DNA of 59,756 nucleotides from Thermoplasmatota archaeon. GTDB taxonomy: Archaea > Thermoplasmatota > Penumbrarchaeia > Penumbrarchaeales > Penumbrarchaeaceae. Below are positions 12,328 to 56,245 of this stretch, one piece after another; position 1 is the first letter of the stretch, and each line of letters begins with the position of its first letter. A program made the position numbers and the translations under genes. The DNA is taken from contig CBDDUX010000060.1 of assembly GCA_965234725.1 (NCBI GenBank), forward strand, positions 1 through 59,756, given 5' to 3'. The notes beneath the pieces are model-generated. The model was given only the letters and a program-made list of their open reading frames with translations, was not told the origin of the DNA and did no database searches.

Positions 12328-12656
12328 GGTCGGGAGATGGTGGACGGCCGACGGTGGTCCTTGATGACCGCTGAGGAAAGTCCTCCCTCCTCAAGACACT
12401 GGAGCCCGGTGCAAGCCGGGGGCGTGAGAACGTCGGCAATGGAGCAGGAACGATCCTCCATGCATTATGGGATGAAGGACCAGGTCCGGACGTCTGCATG
12501 GCAAGGGTGAAACGGCCACCCCTCCGGGGAGCAAGCCCAAATGTCCGAATTGACCCGTCTTGGGATCGGAAGGTAGGGTGCGAAGGTAAATGCCGTCATT
12601 CCCGCCAGTTAAATCGACGGGACCAACAGAAGGAGGCTTACGGCCATTACCCGACC
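12328..12656 (+). ncRNA. rnpB: Archaeal RNase P RNA (probably type A)
   Basis: CR-I GAGGAAAGTCC, GGTGAAACGG, GAGCAAG, CR-V AACAGAAGGAGGCTTA. The terminal helix GGTCGGG.../...CCCGACC pairs, and P8/P9-like hairpins are present. Confidence 0.93.
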
Positions 12657-12784
12657 TTATTTCATCTTCATATCATCCAATATATCATTCATTGCAATCT
12701 CCTCTTCAACGAATATTTAATTATAATGTGATACTACCTTGGCGATCGGTGACCTTAAAGTCACCTTATTGGAAGGTTATCTGC

Positions 12785-13246
12785 ATGACGAACGAAGGAA
12801 ACGGGAATAACTCCAGGGAACTGGAGATGGGACTTTCCCAGATGGAACAGATCAAAGCACAGGTAGAATCACTCAGGTCACAGACGGCCTCCCTTCAATC
12901 GATCCTTATGGATTATACCAACTCAATGGAAGTAATCGTGAGTTTGATGGAAGAGAGTGAAGAAGAGGTCCTGATGCCTATTGGGGGTTCCGCTTTCCTG
13001 AAGGTCAAGCTAATGGATAAAGAAAAGTGCTTGATGGACCGCGGAGCAGGTATATTTGTGGATACTCCCTTGGAAGAGGCAAAGTTACTCGTAAACGAGA
13101 GAATGATGGCAATCAGGAACGGGATCTCCAGGATAGACAAGACCGCACAAGAACTCATGGAACGTTATGAGGAGGTCTCAAACCATGCCCAGGAGATCTA
13201 CAACAAGCAGATGATGGCGGGTGCCGGTCCGGAAAAGACCTTCTGA
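12785..13246 (+). CDS. pfdA: Prefoldin subunit alpha
   Basis: Coiled coils flanking EVLMPIGGSAFLK...GAGIFVD. Directly upstream of ftsY, a conserved archaeal gene order. Start set at MTNEG. Confidence 0.9.
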   Translation: MTNEGNGNNSRELEMGLSQMEQIKAQVESLRSQTASLQSILMDYTNSMEVIVSLMEESEEEVLMPIGGSAFLKVKLMDKEKCLMDRGAGIFVDTPLEEAKLLVNERMMAIRNGISRIDKTAQELMERYEEVSNHAQEIYNKQMMAGAGPEKTF

Positions 13247-25017: not shown

Positions 25018-25524
25018 ATGGATTGCAAAAGATTTCAATTTGTGGATGATGAGGAAATCGACCCAAAGTTCCAGGTTAGGGAATTTCTTGAGCTATGGAT
25101 GTTAATGGGACAGAGACGGATAAGGATCTACTTCACTGATATTGCGGTGTATATTATAGAATATTACACGGGTTTTGGAATGTCATATTTCTGGGTAGCG
25201 ATCCCTTTAAGGATCCTTCTAACTCCGATTTTGGGGCCAATGTACAGAAGAACAATAGAGAACATGACAGATATTAGAGAGATAATGGGTGCTACTACGT
25301 GGTACAGAAGATATGCCTATGAAGAGATCATATCTATTTGGATCGAAAAGGGAGATCTGAGGGATAGATTGTATTTCGAGATCGAGAGGATCAACAAGAA
25401 CATATCCACCCCTGGATTTGGTTCTGGAACTGATTATCTGACATTCGATAAAGAGAAGATCGGAGAATTCGATGAAGTCCTAACGAGAAGGATGGGAGTT
25501 GCTTATAAGGGGATCAAAGAATGA
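25018..25524 (+). CDS. Hypothetical protein
   Basis: 168-aa ORF with one hydrophobic segment; no recognisable motif. Confidence 0.6.
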   Translation: MDCKRFQFVDDEEIDPKFQVREFLELWMLMGQRRIRIYFTDIAVYIIEYYTGFGMSYFWVAIPLRILLTPILGPMYRRTIENMTDIREIMGATTWYRRYAYEEIISIWIEKGDLRDRLYFEIERINKNISTPGFGSGTDYLTFDKEKIGEFDEVLTRRMGVAYKGIKE

Positions 25525-25774
25525 TATTTTCGTACTAAAAGTGATATCTTCATATTATTCGGTCAGATGATCTCTCCTTGAACATTACTTTGTTTTTCAA
25601 CTTCAAATTAGCTATAAATTGGTTAAGTTGAAAAACGTACATACTCGTAACTCACTTCCGAAAATTCGAAAATGATATGTGAGTTCGAGGTTCACCTCAA
25701 TTAAACCGTCTATGAATTATCTCATTGAGGGGACTTTTATTTTAGAATTAAAATTAGAAAAGAGTCTGTATTCT

Positions 25775-25783
25775 AAAATAAAA
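25775..25783 (-). terminator. T-tract after the 5S rRNA gene
   Basis: Minus-strand TTTTATTTT directly after the 5S precursor stem. Confidence 0.5.
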
Positions 25784-25796
25784 GTGAACAAGGGAC

Positions 25797-26013
25797 GGAC
25801 AGCGATCGACGGTTTGGATGCTCCCTTAGCGGTATAATTCCCCGCCTTCCCCGCCGAAACGAAGAAGGCAGTTGGTATACCAGGAGCAAGGACCGTAACC
25901 CTGAGGGCCAAAATTCCCATGGGCGCGTGCACCATAGTACAAAGAGGAACGCTGGTGGGCTTAACTTCCGTGTTCGGAAAGAGAACGGGTGAACCCCACC
26001 GCTATGACCGTCC
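25797..26013 (-). rRNA. rrf: 5S rRNA with a ~101-nt insertion (about 217 nt in total)
   Basis: Minus strand GGACGGTCATAGCGG...CCGAACACGGAAGTTAAGCCC...GTACT...GGGAA is canonical 5S. The helix I partner GCTGTCC occurs only about 100 nt later than usual. Flanking precursor stem AACAAGGGAC/GTCCCTTGTT. Confidence 0.93.
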
Positions 26014-26037
26014 AGTCCCTTGTTGCGAATGTTAATC

Positions 26038-26076
26038 CAATCATATGCATCCCGTCAAACGGTTGAGCCGGCAGCC
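26038..26076 (-). other. 3' strand of the 23S processing stem (bulge-helix-bulge)
   Basis: CCGGCTCAAC-CGTT-TGA-CGGGATGCATATGATTG pairs with 28971-29009. Confidence 0.85.
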
Positions 26077-26079
26077 CGA

Positions 26080-28969
<2,890 letters not shown>

Positions 28970-28970
28970 A

Positions 28971-29009
28971 GACTACCGGCTCAACAAACGTCCAGGATGC
29001 ATATGATTG
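28971..29009 (-). other. 5' strand of the 23S processing stem (bulge-helix-bulge)
   Basis: CAATCATATGCATCCTG-GACG-TTT-GTTGAGCCGG forms a canonical 3-4-3 BHB with the 3' flank. Confidence 0.85.
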
Positions 29010-29296: not shown

Positions 29297-30580
29297 ATGG
29301 CAGAGTTCCAAAGACCCAGAGGAACCCGGGATTTCGACCCCGAGGAAATGAGAAGGAGAAGATGGGTCGAAAACAGTATGAGGAAGGCAATTGCATCATG
29401 CGGCTATTCCGAGATATCAACACCGACCTTCGAGCATACGGATTTATTTATCGCAAGGTCAGGCCCTCAGGTCCTTGAACAGGTCTACGAGTTCGAGGAC
29501 AAAGGTGGAAGGAGCCTTTCCCTGAGACCAGAACTCACAGCACCGGTAATGAGGTTCTACCATTCCGATCTCAGGAATTCTCCCAAACCCCTCAGGATCT
29601 CATATTTTGGGAATTGTTTCAGATATGAGAGACCACAGAAGGGGAGATACAGAGAATTCTGGCAAATGGGATTGGAGTACATAGGGAAGAGAACACCTCT
29701 AGCAGTAGCGGAGGTGATCGATGCTGCAATATCGGCACTCGAGGCATCGGGATTGAAGGGATATATCGTTAGGATCGGCCATGTAGCCCTTCTTGCATCC
29801 ATATTGAAAAGATATGGTGTCGATCCTTCAAAGGACAGAGACCTGATGATAGCTATAGACAAGAAAGATACAAAGGGGATATCCGATCTCATATCTGAAA
29901 GAAGTGAAAAAGACCCCTTGGGATTCGTGAAACTTGTAACGAGTAACTATGGGAAGGATAGTTATTCCCTGGTCCTTGATGACCTTGAAAACGAGTATGA
30001 AGGGGTAGGAACCCATGTAGAAGAGATCAGAAAGGTGCTAATGATACTTGCAGGATCCAATGCAGATATCAGACTGGATCCCTCAATATCAAGAGGACTT
30101 GACTACTACGATGGTGTCGTCTTCGAGATAGATGCCCCCAATCTGGGAGCGGAGAAACAGATATGCGGAGGAGGGTCCTATTCACTTTCCTCTGTTTTCG
30201 GAAGTGAGGTGGAAGGGATCGGTTTTGGTCTCGGATTCGACAGGATCATTGTAGCTCTTGAAAAAGATATATCCGTTCCGGAGGTTGAACATGGTACCTA
30301 CCTTATCCCAATGGGAGTTACTGCAGAGGGCAAAGCCCTTGAACTTGCCACTGTAATCAGGGAGTCGGGGATGAAATGCATACTTGAGACCTCGGGTCGA
30401 GGTTTTAAGAAAGCTATATCAAATGCATTATCGGCGGGATGTTCTCACCTTGTGGTAATTGGAGAAGAAGAGATAGCCAAAGGTACGGTATCAATAAAGG
30501 ACCTAATAACCAAGGAACAAAAGGAGGTCCCTTTTAAAGAGGTAAAAGAATACTTACTTCTTATCCAAGAGGAAAAATGA
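29297..30580 (+). CDS. hisS: Histidine--tRNA ligase
   Basis: PRGTRDF, LRPELTAP, FRYERPQKGRYREFWQ, RGLDYY, GGGSY, GFGLGFDR. SD AGGTGA. Confidence 0.98.
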   Translation: MAEFQRPRGTRDFDPEEMRRRRWVENSMRKAIASCGYSEISTPTFEHTDLFIARSGPQVLEQVYEFEDKGGRSLSLRPELTAPVMRFYHSDLRNSPKPLRISYFGNCFRYERPQKGRYREFWQMGLEYIGKRTPLAVAEVIDAAISALEASGLKGYIVRIGHVALLASILKRYGVDPSKDRDLMIAIDKKDTKGISDLISERSEKDPLGFVKLVTSNYGKDSYSLVLDDLENEYEGVGTHVEEIRKVLMILAGSNADIRLDPSISRGLDYYDGVVFEIDAPNLGAEKQICGGGSYSLSSVFGSEVEGIGFGLGFDRIIVALEKDISVPEVEHGTYLIPMGVTAEGKALELATVIRESGMKCILETSGRGFKKAISNALSAGCSHLVVIGEEEIAKGTVSIKDLITKEQKEVPFKEVKEYLLLIQEEK

Positions 30581-48019: not shown

Positions 48020-51000
48020 TCAGAAAATATCTTTCGTGTTATCCTCTGATTGAACAGGTTCCTCTTCCGATGTTTCTTCAGGCAACTCCTTCTTTTTCCT
48101 TGTTATAAAAAACACTGCCACACCTGCTCCAATAAGAAGCAAGATTACCACAATAATTATGATCAATACTATCGGAGATCCTCCATCACTTTCGGATCTC
48201 TTCATCATTGTATCGGAGCTTGAAAGCTCGGTATCCTCCATTATCTCGATACTTGAGGCCCCTTCCAATGATCGGTAACCGCTCTTTTCTATCTTCCAGG
48301 TAACCTGTCCTTCTGGTACTGAAACCAAGAAGGAACCATCTGTCCCTGTGATTACCGTGTATTCATTCCCATCGGAATCGGTTACAGTAACCTTAGCTCC
48401 TTGTATCGGCTTCCCATCTCCATCCTGGACGATTCCACTTAATGTTCCGTTGTCCAAGACCTTGATCGTGATCTTGTCTGTTCCTCTGTTCAGGAAATGA
48501 TCTGTTACTGTCAATTCTATCTCGTATTCACCCGCTTTATCAAATGTGAAGGTAACAATCTTTCCATCCAATACCTGGTCCTCTCCATTGTAATCAAACT
48601 TCCATTTGAAGGATGAGATCCCTCCATTATCCGTGGAGGAGGACCCGTCAAGGGTGACAGTTGAGCCCTTCTTCACTGTCATATCATCCCCGGCGGATGC
48701 CTTCGGCCTCTCCGTATCCGGGACCTCAACAGTTAAAGTCTTTGAATTCGAATTCTCCCATTGATCGAAAACTGTGAGAGTCACATCGATGTATCCCTGC
48801 CTCTCGAAAGTGTGGTTGAGATAAGGACCTTCGACCATCACATCCTCTCCGTCTGTGAAATTCCAGACATACTTCACTATCCTTCCGTTGTCAGTGGATG
48901 ACAATCCGTCAAGGGAAAGGGAATCTCCCTCCAGGAGTTTCGTCCTCCCTGTTATAACGGCTTCAGGATCGATGGTATCCAGAACTGTCACCTGCAAAGT
49001 TGCCGAATGAGAGTTCTCATTCGCATCTGTGACAGTAAATGTGACAGTGTAATGACCAGGAATTATGAAAGAGAATGAAGCTGTTTCACCATACAGTGTT
49101 TCCGTTCCACCTCCGTAATTGAAAGTCCAGACATATACATCGATCACATCGTTGTCTGTGCTTCTGGATCCGTCAAACTCTGCAATTACTCCATTTTGAA
49201 TCTCAATATCAGGTCCTGGAACCGCAACAGGATTCTCGGTATCGATCACAGTGACGTAGAAGTAGGAATAACCGATATTCCCCTCCGAATCGGTCACCTT
49301 CAACTGTATCTCGTGTATTCCAACCTCAGTGAACCTGAAGGATACATCCGGTCCTTTCAACACTTCTTCTTTCCCTTCATGCTGGAAGGTCCATTTGTAA
49401 TCGGAAATCGGAGAGAGGTCGGTTGTACCAACTGCAGAGAAATAAGCAAGCTCTCCCTGGTTTATAGTAAGATTTCCTTGAGTTACAATCACAGGAGCAG
49501 AACTGTCCTCTACTGTCAGGGTGAATGAATCGGTATCCGTATTCCCTGCGAAATCCGAAACGGTCAGTTCACAGTCGTATACTCCCGCGATATCAAACTG
49601 AAAATCGAACTCGGCAAGCTCCCTCACCACTTCCTCTTCTTCGTAATCGAAGGACCATTTGAAATCTGTAACCATCTGATCATCAGTGGAATCCGTTGCA
49701 TCGAAATGATACGCTTCCCCGAGGTCGATCATCATGTCAGGACCCGCTTCCGCTACTGGAAAGATGGTATCAGTGAAAATTGGATAGATATCTCTGACAT
49801 TTCCCAATACATATGGAGTATCTCCGAAACCATCTGATCCCGAATCCATCTGTTGAGGACCCATCTTCACATCCTTGTCTCCATTATAATCAGACCAGTA
49901 ATTCCCACCTGTTGGATAGATCTTGTTCCAACCTGATCCAACTGATGAATCACTTGCCTGGAGTTCATTATTAATGAACTCATTTCCCCAAATGGTCTTT
50001 CCTGTACACTCATCGATAACCAAACCGGCTACGTTATTACTAAAAACATTATTGAAAATCTGAATATCATTGGAGTTTTCTATCTTAAGGGAATAGTCTT
50101 GGTTCCTATAGAAATTATTGTTATAAATTCTTATCTTATTAGTATTCTTTATCAAGAATCCGGCTATATTGGATGTATGATTGTTTCCAATAATATTCAA
50201 GTTGTAACAACCATCAAATGCTGAATGGTACTCATTGTTATTAGTGAATATATTATTTTCTATTGTAATATTATTTGCTTTTATATTCATTGTATAATTA
50301 TTACTTCGAAATTTGTTACTTTTAATATAAATAGAATCAACATAATTGTGAGCGGAAATTGGTCTATCAATATTCTCTATTGTACAATTTATTATTTTAA
50401 CGTTTTTTCCACTGTTTAAATCTATTTGCTCTATTGAATTATATTCTCTTTTCCCAGAGAAATAACAGTCTGAAATCAGCAAAGTTTCCTCAATTCCAGG
50501 ATTAAATAGAATTGATTGCGTTGAACAATTGAAGTAACATTTTATCACTTCTAATTTATTACAATCTTTTACAGATATGCCAGAGTAACAATAGAATGAT
50601 AGATTGTATAGAGTTATATTTGATCGAATTATTTTTAAACCTCTCCCATTATCACTTAGAAAGGTGAGGTTAGATATTATGACATTATCATGAGATATCG
50701 AATTTAATATTTCATCAGGAAAATTTATGATGGGTTTTGGATTTCCAATCCCATTAATTGTTATGGATTTATTTATAATAATATTTTCAAAATATTCACC
50801 AGTATTAATAATAATAGTATCACCATTTGAACTGTTATCTATCGCATCTTGGATAGTAGTATAATCACCGGAGCCTCCTTGGTCAACTATTATTGTCCCA
50901 TTTAACTTACGACCATTCTGAATATCTCCTTCGACTCGAGATAGACTTGTCGTGGATATTATTGACATTATAACGAACAATGTGATGAAAAAAAACGGAA

Positions 51001-51043
51001 ATTTCCCAACATTAGGTTGTCTTATCAATATACTTCCCTCCAT
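48020..51043 (-). CDS. Surface protein: NosD/pectin-lyase beta-helix + 5 PKD + carboxypeptidase-regulatory-like domain + TM anchor (copy 1)
   Basis: GDYTTIQDAID N-cap, Asn-rich beta-helix, GGNYWSDY, five PKD repeats (STD....Y.W.F...G.Y...LTV.D), C-terminal TM plus RKKK. Confidence 0.9.
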   Translation of the reverse strand: MEGSILIRQPNVGKFPFFFITLFVIMSIISTTSLSRVEGDIQNGRKLNGTIIVDQGGSGDYTTIQDAIDNSSNGDTIIINTGEYFENIIINKSITINGIGNPKPIINFPDEILNSISHDNVIISNLTFLSDNGRGLKIIRSNITLYNLSFYCYSGISVKDCNKLEVIKCYFNCSTQSILFNPGIEETLLISDCYFSGKREYNSIEQIDLNSGKNVKIINCTIENIDRPISAHNYVDSIYIKSNKFRSNNYTMNIKANNITIENNIFTNNNEYHSAFDGCYNLNIIGNNHTSNIAGFLIKNTNKIRIYNNNFYRNQDYSLKIENSNDIQIFNNVFSNNVAGLVIDECTGKTIWGNEFINNELQASDSSVGSGWNKIYPTGGNYWSDYNGDKDVKMGPQQMDSGSDGFGDTPYVLGNVRDIYPIFTDTIFPVAEAGPDMMIDLGEAYHFDATDSTDDQMVTDFKWSFDYEEEEVVRELAEFDFQFDIAGVYDCELTVSDFAGNTDTDSFTLTVEDSSAPVIVTQGNLTINQGELAYFSAVGTTDLSPISDYKWTFQHEGKEEVLKGPDVSFRFTEVGIHEIQLKVTDSEGNIGYSYFYVTVIDTENPVAVPGPDIEIQNGVIAEFDGSRSTDNDVIDVYVWTFNYGGGTETLYGETASFSFIIPGHYTVTFTVTDANENSHSATLQVTVLDTIDPEAVITGRTKLLEGDSLSLDGLSSTDNGRIVKYVWNFTDGEDVMVEGPYLNHTFERQGYIDVTLTVFDQWENSNSKTLTVEVPDTERPKASAGDDMTVKKGSTVTLDGSSSTDNGGISSFKWKFDYNGEDQVLDGKIVTFTFDKAGEYEIELTVTDHFLNRGTDKITIKVLDNGTLSGIVQDGDGKPIQGAKVTVTDSDGNEYTVITGTDGSFLVSVPEGQVTWKIEKSGYRSLEGASSIEIMEDTELSSSDTMMKRSESDGGSPIVLIIIIVVILLLIGAGVAVFFITRKKKELPEETSEEEPVQSEDNTKDIF
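48237..48463. repeat. 227-bp tract identical to 53367-53593, within a ~1.8-kb imperfect repeat (about 48150-49915 vs 53280-55045)
   Basis: Base-by-base comparison at offset 5130. Confidence 0.9.
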
Positions 51044-53140: not shown

Positions 53141-56100
53141 TCATGATCGAAACAGGTCATTTTCCTGTTCATCAATAGTATCGGTTGAATCAGGATTTTC
53201 GACATCAATGATCTCAGTTTTCTTGTTTTTCATGATAAAAAAGACCGCTAAACCGATTCCGACAAAAAGCAAGATGACCACAATAATTATGATCAATACG
53301 ATCGGAGATCCTCCATCACCTTTGGATTTCTTCATCATCGTATCAGAGGTTGATAGATCAGTATTTTCCATTATCTCGATACTTGAGGCCCCTTCCAATG
53401 ATCGGTAACCGCTCTTTTCTATCTTCCAGGTAACCTGTCCTTCTGGTACTGAAACCAAGAAGGAACCATCTGTCCCTGTGATTACCGTGTATTCATTCCC
53501 ATCGGAATCGGTTACAGTAACCTTAGCTCCTTGTATCGGCTTCCCATCTCCATCCTGGACGATTCCACTTAATGTTCCGTTGTCCAAGACCTTTATCATG
53601 ATCTTATCTGTTCCTCTGTTCAGGAAATTGTCTGTCACGGTCAATTCTATCTCGTATTCTCCAGCTTTATCAAAGGTGAAGGTGACAATCTTTCCTTCCA
53701 ATACCTGATCCTCTCCATTGTAATCGAACTTCCATTTGAAGGATGAGATCCCTCCGTTATCCGTGGAGGAGGACCCATCAAGTGTGACAATGGAACCTTT
53801 CTTCACTGTCATATCATCCCCGGCGGATGCCTTCGGCCTCTCTGTATCCGGGACCTCAACAGTAACAGTCTTGGAAGCAGAATTGTTCCATTGATCAAAG
53901 ACTGTCAATGTGGTATCAATGTATCCCTGCCTTTCGAAAGTGTGATTCAGGTAAGGACCTTCGACCATCACATCCTCTCCGTCGGTGAAGTTCCAGACAT
54001 ATTTCATTATCTTTCCGTTGTCTATGGATGACAATCCGTCTAGCGACAGTGAATCTCCCTCGAGGAGCTTCGTTCTCCCTGTAATAACGGCTTCAGGATC
54101 GATGGTATCCAAAACTGTCACCTGCAAAGTTGCCGAATGATAGTTCTCATTCGCATCTGTGACAGTAAGAGTGACAGTGTAGTAACCGGGTATGTTGAAG
54201 AGGAACGAAGCTGTTTCACCATACAGCGTTTCTGTTCTACCTCCGTACTTGAACGTCCACTTATATTCCTCGATAACATCGTTGTCTGTGCTTCCGGATC
54301 CGTCAAACTCTGCAATATCTCCATTCTCTATCTCAATATCTGGTCCTATAACGGCAACAGGATCCTCGGTGTCAATGACAGTGACGTAGAAGTAGGAATA
54401 TCCGAAATTACCCTCGGAATCGGTCACCTTCAGTTGAATCTCGTGTACACCTACATCGAAGAACCTGAAGGATACATCCGGTCCTTTCAACACTTCTTCA
54501 TTTCCCTGATGCTGGAAGGTCCATTTGTATTCGAAAATCGGAGATAAATCGGTTGTACCTGCTGCGGAGAAGAATGCAAGTTCTCCCTGGTTTACGGTAA
54601 GATTCCCTTGAGTTGCAACCACCGGAGGAGACCTGTCTTCAACTGTCAGAATGAATGAATCGGTATCCATGTTCCCCGCGAAATCCGAAACGGTCAATTC
54701 ACAATCATACACACCCGCGATATCGAACTGGAAATCGAACTCGGCAAGGTCCCTCACCACTTCTTCTCCGTCGTATTCGAAGGACCACACGAAATGAGTT
54801 ACCATCTGATCATCTGTGGAATCCGTTGCATCGAAGTGAAAGGTTTCTCCGAGTTCCATCTTCATATCAGGACCTGCTACTGCTTCTGGAAAAACATTAT
54901 CGGCAAATATAGGATAGATATCCCTGACATTACCCAGTACGTATGGAGTATCTCCGTAACCGTCGGATCCTGAATCCATCTGTTGAGGACCCATCTTCAC
55001 ATCCTTGTTTCCATTATAATCCGACCAGTAATTGCCTCCCGTCGGATAATTTCCATACCATTTGTGGGAGATGCTGGAGGACTGAGCCTGGATATCGTTT
55101 TCGATGAATCTGTTCCCCCATACTACTGCATTGGGGGAATTTACCATGGATACACCCACCTTGTTATTGTAGAACAAATTATCATGAACAACACATTCCC
55201 TCTCATTACCTTCGATATAAAATCCAATATTGTTATTCTTGATAGTATTATTGAAAATATGAGGGTTTGTCCCTGATATCTCGATTTGACCAGTGTTATT
55301 TTCAAAAAGGTTGTCATGGACTTTCGTTGTGCTCCCTCCTCGAATATAATTATCTTTATTTCCTCTGAATATATTATGATGAATATCTCCATTACTGACA
55401 TACACAGATTCACAATTATAGAAAATATTATTTAGAATGTTACCTCCAATATTATTTAATGGCCTACTACAATTCGAGAAGAAATGGTTGGTAACAGTTA
55501 AATTTTTAATAATGGAATCAGAATTTCTTATTAATGCTCCACTTCCACTTGAAGGATAATATTCTCCGATAAAGGTATTATTAGATAAATAGATATTCTC
55601 ACAAGCTTCATTGAAAAACTCTGACGAAAAATATATTACACTGCTTAAGTTGAGATAATTGATGAATTTATTTTCCATTATCAATATAGCATCAACAGCT
55701 TCAAAATGCATTGAATTTTTTGTACAATTGAATTCACATCCTGATATGGTAAGATTGTCATAATCATAATTTTTTATTCCATGGTCTCCAAGAAATTTTA
55801 CATTGTTTAGAGTAATTCTAGAAGCTTGAACCAGAATATTTATTGACATTGGATTGTTCCCATCATTTTTATTCTCTATCGATATATTTTCTATATTTAC
55901 ATCATTTGATGTGATTATTATATTAGTTGTACCCTCCTCAACATGATAGATAAGAGGATTCCCTATCCCAATCAAAGAAATGGATCTGTTTATTGTTAAT
56001 AACTCAGTGTAGTTTCCAGAATATATATGGATGGTGTCTCCATCTTTACTATGATTGATTGCATCCTGGATCCTTGTATAATCACCTGAACCTCCCCGAT

Positions 56101-56245
56101 CAACAATGATGACATCTCCTTCAATTGGAAAATCTGAATTCATCTCGTTAAGGATTGCATTCTCACCTTTCTCATAGCCGTCGATGCCATTATTTAAAGA
56201 TAATAAAAATATAGTTGCAGCAAGGTATGCGAAAACTCTTTTCAT
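53141..56245 (-). CDS. Surface protein: beta-helix + 5 PKD + carboxypeptidase-regulatory-like domain + TM anchor (copy 2)
   Basis: Same architecture as 48020-51043, with a near-identical C-terminal ~600 aa. Confidence 0.9.
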   Translation of the reverse strand: MKRVFAYLAATIFLLSLNNGIDGYEKGENAILNEMNSDFPIEGDVIIVDRGGSGDYTRIQDAINHSKDGDTIHIYSGNYTELLTINRSISLIGIGNPLIYHVEEGTTNIIITSNDVNIENISIENKNDGNNPMSINILVQASRITLNNVKFLGDHGIKNYDYDNLTISGCEFNCTKNSMHFEAVDAILIMENKFINYLNLSSVIYFSSEFFNEACENIYLSNNTFIGEYYPSSGSGALIRNSDSIIKNLTVTNHFFSNCSRPLNNIGGNILNNIFYNCESVYVSNGDIHHNIFRGNKDNYIRGGSTTKVHDNLFENNTGQIEISGTNPHIFNNTIKNNNIGFYIEGNERECVVHDNLFYNNKVGVSMVNSPNAVVWGNRFIENDIQAQSSSISHKWYGNYPTGGNYWSDYNGNKDVKMGPQQMDSGSDGYGDTPYVLGNVRDIYPIFADNVFPEAVAGPDMKMELGETFHFDATDSTDDQMVTHFVWSFEYDGEEVVRDLAEFDFQFDIAGVYDCELTVSDFAGNMDTDSFILTVEDRSPPVVATQGNLTVNQGELAFFSAAGTTDLSPIFEYKWTFQHQGNEEVLKGPDVSFRFFDVGVHEIQLKVTDSEGNFGYSYFYVTVIDTEDPVAVIGPDIEIENGDIAEFDGSGSTDNDVIEEYKWTFKYGGRTETLYGETASFLFNIPGYYTVTLTVTDANENYHSATLQVTVLDTIDPEAVITGRTKLLEGDSLSLDGLSSIDNGKIMKYVWNFTDGEDVMVEGPYLNHTFERQGYIDTTLTVFDQWNNSASKTVTVEVPDTERPKASAGDDMTVKKGSIVTLDGSSSTDNGGISSFKWKFDYNGEDQVLEGKIVTFTFDKAGEYEIELTVTDNFLNRGTDKIMIKVLDNGTLSGIVQDGDGKPIQGAKVTVTDSDGNEYTVITGTDGSFLVSVPEGQVTWKIEKSGYRSLEGASSIEIMENTDLSTSDTMMKKSKGDGGSPIVLIIIIVVILLFVGIGLAVFFIMKNKKTEIIDVENPDSTDTIDEQENDLFRS

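Follow-up and report, generated by a model that had tools for sequence, protein, structure and literature searches.

The window, by which we mean the whole stretch of 59,756 bases that was analysed, carries a 23S rRNA gene and, 61 nt behind it in the same transcription unit, a 5S rRNA gene of unusual length, both on the minus strand (Table 1). Ordinary archaeal housekeeping genes surround the 5S gene, encoding AlaRS, HisRS, FtsY, Dph2 and the glycine cleavage P protein. The host is an uncultured Thermoplasmatota archaeon with a G+C content of about 47% and without haloarchaeal affiliation. A Thermoplasmatota-like host had already been suggested in an earlier note on this DNA, and this placement held: the 5S core clusters with three aligned Thermoplasmatota sequences and, among the AlaRS relatives, which share at most 80% identity, the named ones (at 64-76%) were titled Thermoplasmatota or Thermoplasmata archaeon in nine of nine cases. 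Neither a 16S gene nor a tRNA gene was found within the 59,756 bases, in which RF00001 matched only once. The rRNA operon is therefore split, as it is in other Thermoplasmata: the linked 23S and 5S genes have no 16S neighbour for 25-30 kb in either direction. The HisRS gene (29297-30580) diverges from the promoter region of the 23S gene. Directly after the 5S trailer, and before a convergent open reading frame (25018-25524), stands a 16-bp hairpin flanked by T runs which, from its modelled fold, looks like a terminator, possibly a two-way one, between the rRNA operon and this frame.

Table 1. Features of the 23S-5S region of the window, with the evidence on which each delimitation is based.
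Feature	Positions	Strand	Basis
23S rRNA gene	26077..28973	-	Rfam RF02540 with 2806.2 bits over model positions 1-2987
3' half of the 23S processing stem	26033..26061	-	cofold of the flanks, -68 kcal/mol; BHB scanner
5S leader strand of the precursor stem, AACAAGGGAC	26015..26024	-	pairs 10/10 with 25796-25787
Expanded 5S rRNA gene, about 218 nt	25797..26014	-	distal closure of helix I
Canonical 5S core	25908..26014	-	Rfam alignment; 59/59 invariant columns of an 18-sequence alignment kept
Expansion segment, 101 nt	25807..25907	-	colinearity with normal relatives, especially L034; strand-specific fold
Short arm, GGCCC-UCA-GGGUU, with 3-bp core CCC/GGG	25897..25909	-	folds and RNAalifold
Long unbranched arm	25809..25896	-	fold; 3' bulge GCUAA and internal loops
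Distal stem-loop, 13 bp with four G.U pairs and UUCG loop	25842..25871	-	fold; 8 basal pairs in common with L080
AUC (lower helix V, 3' strand) and GCUGUCC (helix I, 3' strand)	25797..25806	-	aligns with (C/A)GCUGUC of 16 normal relatives
Trailer strand of the precursor stem, GUCCCUUGUU	25787..25796	-	pairs 10/10 with the leader
AT-rich 16-bp hairpin, T runs on both sides/strands, UUUUAUUUU	25733..25785	-	fold, -13.2 kcal/mol, z -5.81, 0/200 shuffles

Up to GGGAA of loop E, the gene is a canonical archaeal 5S, in agreement with the first description of the locus. The core comprises the 5' strand of helix I, helices II and III with loop C, helix IV, loop E and the UUUUGG of the helix V 3' strand, and it retained every invariant column of our alignment (A2), which joins the window and a second expanded gene, L080, to 16 normal Thermoplasmatota 5S genes of 114-123 nt. 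In all 16 normal sequences GGGAA is followed by 8-9 nt of the helix V 3' strand and then by (C/A)GCUGUC. In the window and in L080 this block is present only downstream of an insert. There, GGACGGU (26013-26007) pairs with GCUGUCC (25803-25797) at 7 of 7 positions, and the helix continues over one bulged U into the 10-bp leader/trailer stem. The same distal columns form seven standard pairs in 18 of 18 aligned sequences, with covariation (at one pair, CG in 10, GC in 4, UA in 4). The displaced helix I 3' strand and precursor stem that had been read from the sequence are thus confirmed; the proposed length of about 217 nt was about right, the count being 218 nt if the RNA starts at U26014. Folding a 251-nt precursor led to the same result, as its minimum free energy structure closed distally, with -105.0 kcal/mol (z -4.72), which none of 200 shuffles equalled.

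Rfam, however, annotates a shorter gene. The RF00001 call runs from 26015 to 25899 (117 nt) with 62.3 bits against a gathering score of 38, and membership in the family is supported by this score and by helices II and III with loop C and helix IV with loop E, all in place. The helix I of this call (CUGGACGGU with GCCCUCAGG) contains two non-pairs among nine positions and helix V is left unpaired. Helix I from the 5' and 3' ends forms only through the distal strand, and forcing the Rfam helix I instead gave -91.2 as compared with -105.2 kcal/mol, a penalty of 14 kcal/mol. Could the call nevertheless be correct, with a normal 117-nt 5S ending at 25899 and the next 100 nt forming a structured 3' trailer? 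That RF00001 and a covariance model built from the 16 normal Thermoplasmatota genes (R1) both align completely speaks for it, but we regard it as very improbable. The two models disagree on the 3' end (25899 and 25887) and both ends include non-pairs; in L080 the Rfam helix I has even four non-pairs and helix V is again unpaired. The scores of the two genes, 62.3 and 64.0 bits, are below those of 38 of 40 scored 5S genes (73.5-107.7 bits), and the (C/A)GCUGUC strand together with the helix V segment AUC or GGAAC occurs only after the insert. No terminator-like signal was found after the Rfam 5S end. The earlier note had predicted that standard annotation would truncate the gene, as both models indeed did; its proposal to place the insert by alignment to RF00001 failed, the model having chosen a nearby false 3' end and not a 100-nt insertion.

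The position of the insert followed from colinearity with L034, which of the normal relatives among the matches listed comes nearest in gene order and core and has linked 23S and 5S genes and a 23S 3' end of 81.7% identity. L034 reads GGGAACUUUGG-UAC-GCUGUCC and the corresponding stretch of the window GGGAAUUUUGG-(101 nt)-AUC-GCUGUCC, which puts the insert into the helix V 3' strand, between GG and AUC, after nt 107 of the RNA; above it two pairs lead up to loop E, and below it three positions lead down to helix I. The borders obtained from the normal relatives are exactly those that had been assigned before. Across the insert, helix V would consist of G-C, U.U, U-A, C-G and C-G, followed by U/U and C/U oppositions. 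Poor pairing of the adjacent helix (TCTT versus TTTT) had been remarked on previously, and rightly so; it is explained by a helix V that is weak in this subclade with or without insert, since L034, L038 and L006, the nearest normal relatives among the matches listed, have an equally weak helix including the U.U opposition. Enforcing helix V thermodynamically cost 6-8 kcal/mol and rearranged other parts of the structure.

On the rRNA strand the insert folded with -44.2 kcal/mol (z -4.15, 0 of 200 shuffles), whereas the opposite strand reached only -33.7 kcal/mol (z -1.54, 16 of 200 shuffles), in keeping with the claim that the fold works on the rRNA strand only. The hairpin was recovered as described, with its stems ACGGU/ACCGU, UGCUCCU/GGGAGCA and GGUAUA/UAUACC (25881-25876 with 25836-25831) and with the UUCG-capped 13-bp stem and its four G.U pairs. 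In addition to this long arm there is a short one, part of which Rfam wrongly reads as the helix I 3' strand.

Several other identities of the insert were considered and rejected. A repeated or mobile element was discarded, as no other copy was found in the window (best other match 17 nt, E 0.07) and the best BLAST match in at least 120 5S loci (see below) covered 13 nt with E 0.34. A known RNA family within the insert was not detected by an Rfam search of 25740-26060 with E up to 10, which matched 5S only. Judged by eye, no tandem G.A pairs stood in the right register for a K-turn in the internal loops. Finally, local alignments did not show the insert to be a direct or inverted duplicate of the 5S core, their z values of -0.05, 1.42, -0.92 and 1.40 not rising above shuffles. 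A separate observation concerns the 3' half of the insert, which is complementary to the 5' end of the 5S: GACGGU/ACCGUC and UAGCGGU/ACCGCUA join 26007-26013 and 25999-26005 to 25808-25813 and 25827-25833, and the duplex reached -34.3 kcal/mol with 1 of 500 shuffles as good. In L080 a similar complementarity was non-significant (57 of 500), with one matching base change, and the 5' ends of normal relatives pair with the insert 3' half about as well. It could be an alternative fold, a remnant of how the insert arose, or coincidence.

L080 came from a scan of a genome collection with a degenerate 5S-core pattern, which returned at least 120 loci, mostly from Patescibacteria and about 29 of them archaeal, the window's own genome not being among those listed. 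Rfam was run on 40 of 120 listed loci and matched a 5S in all 40, with 73.5-107.7 bits in 38 of them, 64.0 in L080 and 58.4 in L102. How far away the helix I partner lies was estimated crudely for all 120, and for 80 of them this estimate is the basis of the judgement; apart from L036, cut at a contig end, the remaining loci had an approximately normal closure distance or no clear closing helix. The check in related MAGs by BLASTN or covariance search that the earlier note had called for was productive in one respect, as a second expanded 5S was found, although BLAST of the insert against the at least 120 listed loci yielded no copy. L080, a separate Thermoplasmata MAG, was the only one of these loci with such an insert. 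Its gene reads GGGAAGC, 100 nt, then GGAAC-GCUGUCG closing helix I, with a 7-bp leader/trailer stem (GCAGUGG/CCACUGC). The best reading of the border is GC-(100 nt)-GGAAC, which places the insert at the same site, after about nt 105; the borders are uncertain by a few bases, as the bases next to them can pair in either way. This insert, too, folds into a short hairpin (CCCC-GUAA-GGGG) and a long unbranched arm. The total lengths are 218 nt in the window and 217 nt in L080, while the cores are only about 80% identical. The L080 gene is not linked to a 23S gene, and a TATA-like sequence, CTTTTATA, can be read some 20-30 nt upstream of its leader.

The comparison of the two expanded genes was informative on the structure. 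In the leader/trailer stem and helix I, five pairs are changed on both sides. The 6-bp stem of the insert is fully paired in both genes with two compensatory changes (GGUAUA/UAUACC versus GGUACG/CGUACC). The distal stem has one compensatory and four one-sided changes, of which its eight shared basal pairs account for one compensatory and three one-sided, without any break. Over the whole structure, which was derived from the window sequence and is to that extent biased in its favour, 13 pairs are changed on both sides; shuffles gave 6.5 +/- 1.7, with 1 of 500 reaching this number, and controls with slid partners gave 0-3. The two basal stems of the long arm counted as breaks because they are out of register in the alignment, though they are present in both genes. 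RNAalifold, unaided, recovered the distal closure, the short hairpin, the 6-bp stem and the distal stem. Because two expanded sequences were available among the matches listed, the covariation rests on a single pairwise comparison. The loops differ between the inserts (UCA versus GUAA, UUCG versus CUUGU), so that no functional motif stands out. From these sequence patterns, it is most likely that the helices of the insert and its overall size are under selection.

These observations also bear on two readings in which the expanded gene would not serve the ribosome as it stands. Thermoplasmata usually have single rRNA genes, which counts against a decaying or silent copy whose function would be taken over by a normal 5S gene elsewhere in the genome. 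We consider such a copy improbable for further reasons: the gene lies inside the operon, 61 nt behind the 23S gene, and keeps all invariant core columns; insert and precursor stem show compensatory change and not decay; the same architecture and length are kept in two lineages. On the other side, the L080 gene is unlinked to a 23S gene, our view of the genome extends over 59,756 bases, and some bacteria carry normal 5S genes next to expanded ones in their genomes according to the excerpted account of Stepanov and Fox (PMC7812874). An assembly artefact or chimera would be harder still to reconcile with the data and appears hardly conceivable to us. The window is probably part of a metagenome assembly, because its closest relatives are MAGs, which is the one point in favor of an artefact. 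In L080, a MAG with another record name and prefix, an insert of diverged sequence shows this architecture at the corresponding site, and no further copy of the insert was found in the window.

Removal of the insert after transcription, either through the archaeal splicing endonuclease and ligase or by excision without ligation, would mean that the 5S in the ribosome is split or only about 120 nt long, and had to be weighed more seriously. The organism does use bulge-helix-bulge (BHB) machinery at its 23S processing stem. There, the BHB is formed by CGUU (26061-26058) with the bulge UGA (26057-26055) opposite GACG (28992-28989) with the bulge UUU (28988-28986); the partner strand of the stem is 29009-28986, and helices of 18 and 16 bp flank the motif. 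The leader stem of the 5S starts only a few bases after this processing stem ends. A scanner that requires two 3-nt bulges separated by a 4-bp helix recovered the 23S motif as positive control. With the same geometry no BHB was found at the borders of the window's insert, which bears out the earlier observation that none is visible at the junctions. BHB-like matches in the 5S region of the window numbered 16 as compared with 12.6 +/- 4.1 in shuffles, and 1 as compared with 1.8 when stricter helices were demanded. A BHB intron is not supported, since border matches are absent in the window and the counts are at the level of chance.

At the borders of the L080 insert there is one loose BHB-like match (helices of 3 and 2 bp), which could be counted in favor of excision, but it has no counterpart in the window, and the conserved GGAAC of helix V would be lost if it were used. 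A nuclease could moreover plausibly act on a hairpin of such length and stability. Intervening sequences excised by RNase III are found in bacterial 23S and 16S genes, and they resemble the present insert in being long hairpins placed in an rRNA helix; we know of no sequence of this type in an archaeal 5S. As stated in the accessible part of Stepanov and Fox (PMC7812874), sequence alone cannot exclude excision for experimentally unconfirmed 5S insertions. An intron, however, needs its splice motif only, yet here the inner helices keep compensatory pairing and the size is conserved, and this conservation of helices and length argues for a role in the finished RNA. We therefore judge removal after transcription to be rather unlikely.

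The explanation we prefer, and hold to be probable from the analysis as a whole, is an expansion segment of 101 nt that is retained in the ribosome and emerges from the 3' strand of helix V between loop E and the three-helix junction. The 5S gene would be transcribed together with the 23S, which would then be cut out at its BHB motif. The leader/trailer stem runs into helix I and, by sequence and covariation, encloses the whole molecule of 218 nt. The insert would fold on itself into its short hairpin and its long irregular arm, and these arms together with the two halves of helix V would form a four-way junction, leaving the canonical core intact. The geometry of this junction is uncertain because the lower helix V of the window consists only of G-C, U.U and U-A. 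The segment would most likely be a peripheral, tolerated module.

An expansion segment of this kind in 5S rRNA, the Halococcus type, was reportedly described by Luehrsen et al. in 1981. In the excerpted parts of their RefSeq genome survey, Stepanov and Fox (2021, PMC7812874) describe the halobacterial expansion as 108 nt at positions 104.1-105, between loop E and the triple junction, an 'asymmetric V' in shape, one side being a short hairpin and the other a long arm without branches; the mature RNA keeps it, and annotators take a piece of the insert for the 3' end. An example record cited there is NZ_AOMC01000054.1 (66311-66541). The archaeal expansions are all of this one type, the sole archaeal one in print by that account, and their carriers are Halococcus, Halalkalicoccus, Halomarina and Halodesulfurarchaeum, among which lateral transfer was proposed (PMC7812874). 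For Halococcus, Tirumalai et al. (2020) described a four-way junction projecting off base 108 in a cryo-EM study hampered by high salt, as far as the available excerpt goes (PMC7530397).

The likeness to the present gene is considerable, as had been recognised for the Halococcus insertion of about 108 nt at a similar position of the 3' arm, which agrees with the published description (PMC7812874, in the part available). The sites correspond (104.1-105 or base 108 in the published accounts; after nt 107 in the window and about 105 in L080, as mapped by description). The size is similar, 108 nt of a total of 231 as compared with 101 and 100 nt of 218 and 217, so that the molecule is nearly doubled in each case. 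By verbal description, the shape agrees as well, a short hairpin with a long unbranched arm that implies a four-way junction. Also shared are the annotation error, by which a piece of the insert is read as the 3' end, and the patchy distribution among relatives. In contrast, the present host belongs to Thermoplasmatota, with about 47% G+C, and not to Halobacteria; retention in the mature RNA, established for Halococcus in the excerpted literature, is for the window a prediction. Furthermore, the halobacterial segment's best-conserved part is the distal stem-loop in that same account, whereas here it is the base of the distal stem and the 6-bp stem, the loops not being conserved. A search of a plasmid collection returned 33 records, none from Halococcus; the matches were confined to the 5S core (query nt 2-107), and the haloarchaeal ones came from genera outside the four carriers.

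Other known systems are less close. The Thermoanaerobacterial 5S expansion and the clostridial loop C expansions are likewise large self-folding insertions that leave the core intact, but according to the excerpts they sit in the helix III bulge (52-53) and in loop C (34-37), respectively, belong to the bacterial domain and have other shapes (PMC7812874). Archaeal BHB introns and processing stems also place extra sequence in or around an rRNA gene, as the 23S stem of this organism illustrates, but the borders of the insert lack a conserved BHB and the 5S leader/trailer stem has a one-base bulge only. We found no report of an expanded 5S in Thermoplasmatota in the literature outside subscription journals, and the excerpted texts of PMC12918454 and PMC8339473 make no mention of one. 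On the strength of the sequence comparisons, the gene in the window is most likely an expansion of the known Halococcus-type site, size and shape in a phylum that is new for such expansions.

How the module came to be present in two Thermoplasmata lineages was addressed with a tree of the 5S core (119 columns). The window grouped with three normal, 23S-linked sequences (support 97/94) and L080 stood on the other side, so the distribution looks patchy, as in haloarchaea. This tree needs two changes between expanded and normal state. Forcing the two expanded sequences together was worse by 11 log-likelihood units (p-AU 0.021), a result obtained on 119 columns for a group named after the tree had been seen. 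The inserts themselves share a weak similarity (score 41 as compared with 22.1 +/- 7.6, z 2.5, reached by 10 of 1000 shuffles). The view of the earlier note that the segment was independently gained is not supported as stated, given the same site in L080, this similarity and the compensatory changes. Because site, length and shape match the halobacterial description, independent gain has no advantage over shared ancestry or lateral spread. The module may have been gained twice, may go back to one ancestral gain followed by losses, or may have been transferred. A more far-reaching hypothesis would see in the 'asymmetric V' of about 100 nt one homologous element, spread laterally to the same helix V site or old and lost often, which would span Halobacteria and at least two Thermoplasmata lineages. 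We think of this as an attractive but tentative proposal, with the odds against it; if true, the module would be mobile or long-lived, with a selected role, for example as a docking arm on the central protuberance.

Both RF00001 and the lineage model truncate the gene at a false 3' end, as a consequence of which MAG annotation systematically overlooks expanded 5S genes and 5S databases are biased. The presence of the insert in a second Thermoplasmata genome indicates that oversized 5S rRNAs are probably more widespread in archaea than annotated. That two Thermoplasmata lineages agree in site, size and shape shows this position of helix V to be a general permissive or preferred site for growth of the archaeal ribosome and raises the question whether the module is shared through descent, transfer or convergence. 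Besides its relevance for ribosome evolution and rRNA annotation, the finding provides non-halophilic material for structural work on expanded 5S. As a practical aside, disagreement of the two models on the 3' end (25887 versus 25899) could serve to flag further expanded genes.

A few minor observations were made in the window and in the surveyed loci. An archaeal RNase P RNA (12332-12652, plus strand, RF00373, 189.1 bits) has several loops with extra bases relative to the model, and its 3' end is overlapped by a mechanically called open reading frame (12590-13246). Two frames of about 1000 amino acids each on the minus strand (48020-51043 and 53141-56245) share the same weak matches, to NosD-like beta-helix and PKD-like repeats, and lie partly in a stretch of low G+C content (31-39% as compared with about 47% elsewhere); they may encode variable surface proteins or represent acquired DNA. 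Among the surveyed loci, L102 (252-357, titled 'bacterium', 58.4 bits) and L104 (274-381, Patescibacteria group, 73.5 bits) both from CPR bacteria, had been flagged as candidate expanded genes by the distance scan and by their lower Rfam scores and were rejected; they carry reduced 5S genes with a much shortened helix IV and no insertion. Near the 5S genes of a Nanohaloarchaeota MAG (L062, 281-426) and a Culexmicrobium MAG (L012, 755-865), tRNA matches of 146 and 111 nt presumably are intron-containing tRNA genes, and in L021 a tRNA gene follows the 5S gene at a distance of 9 nt.
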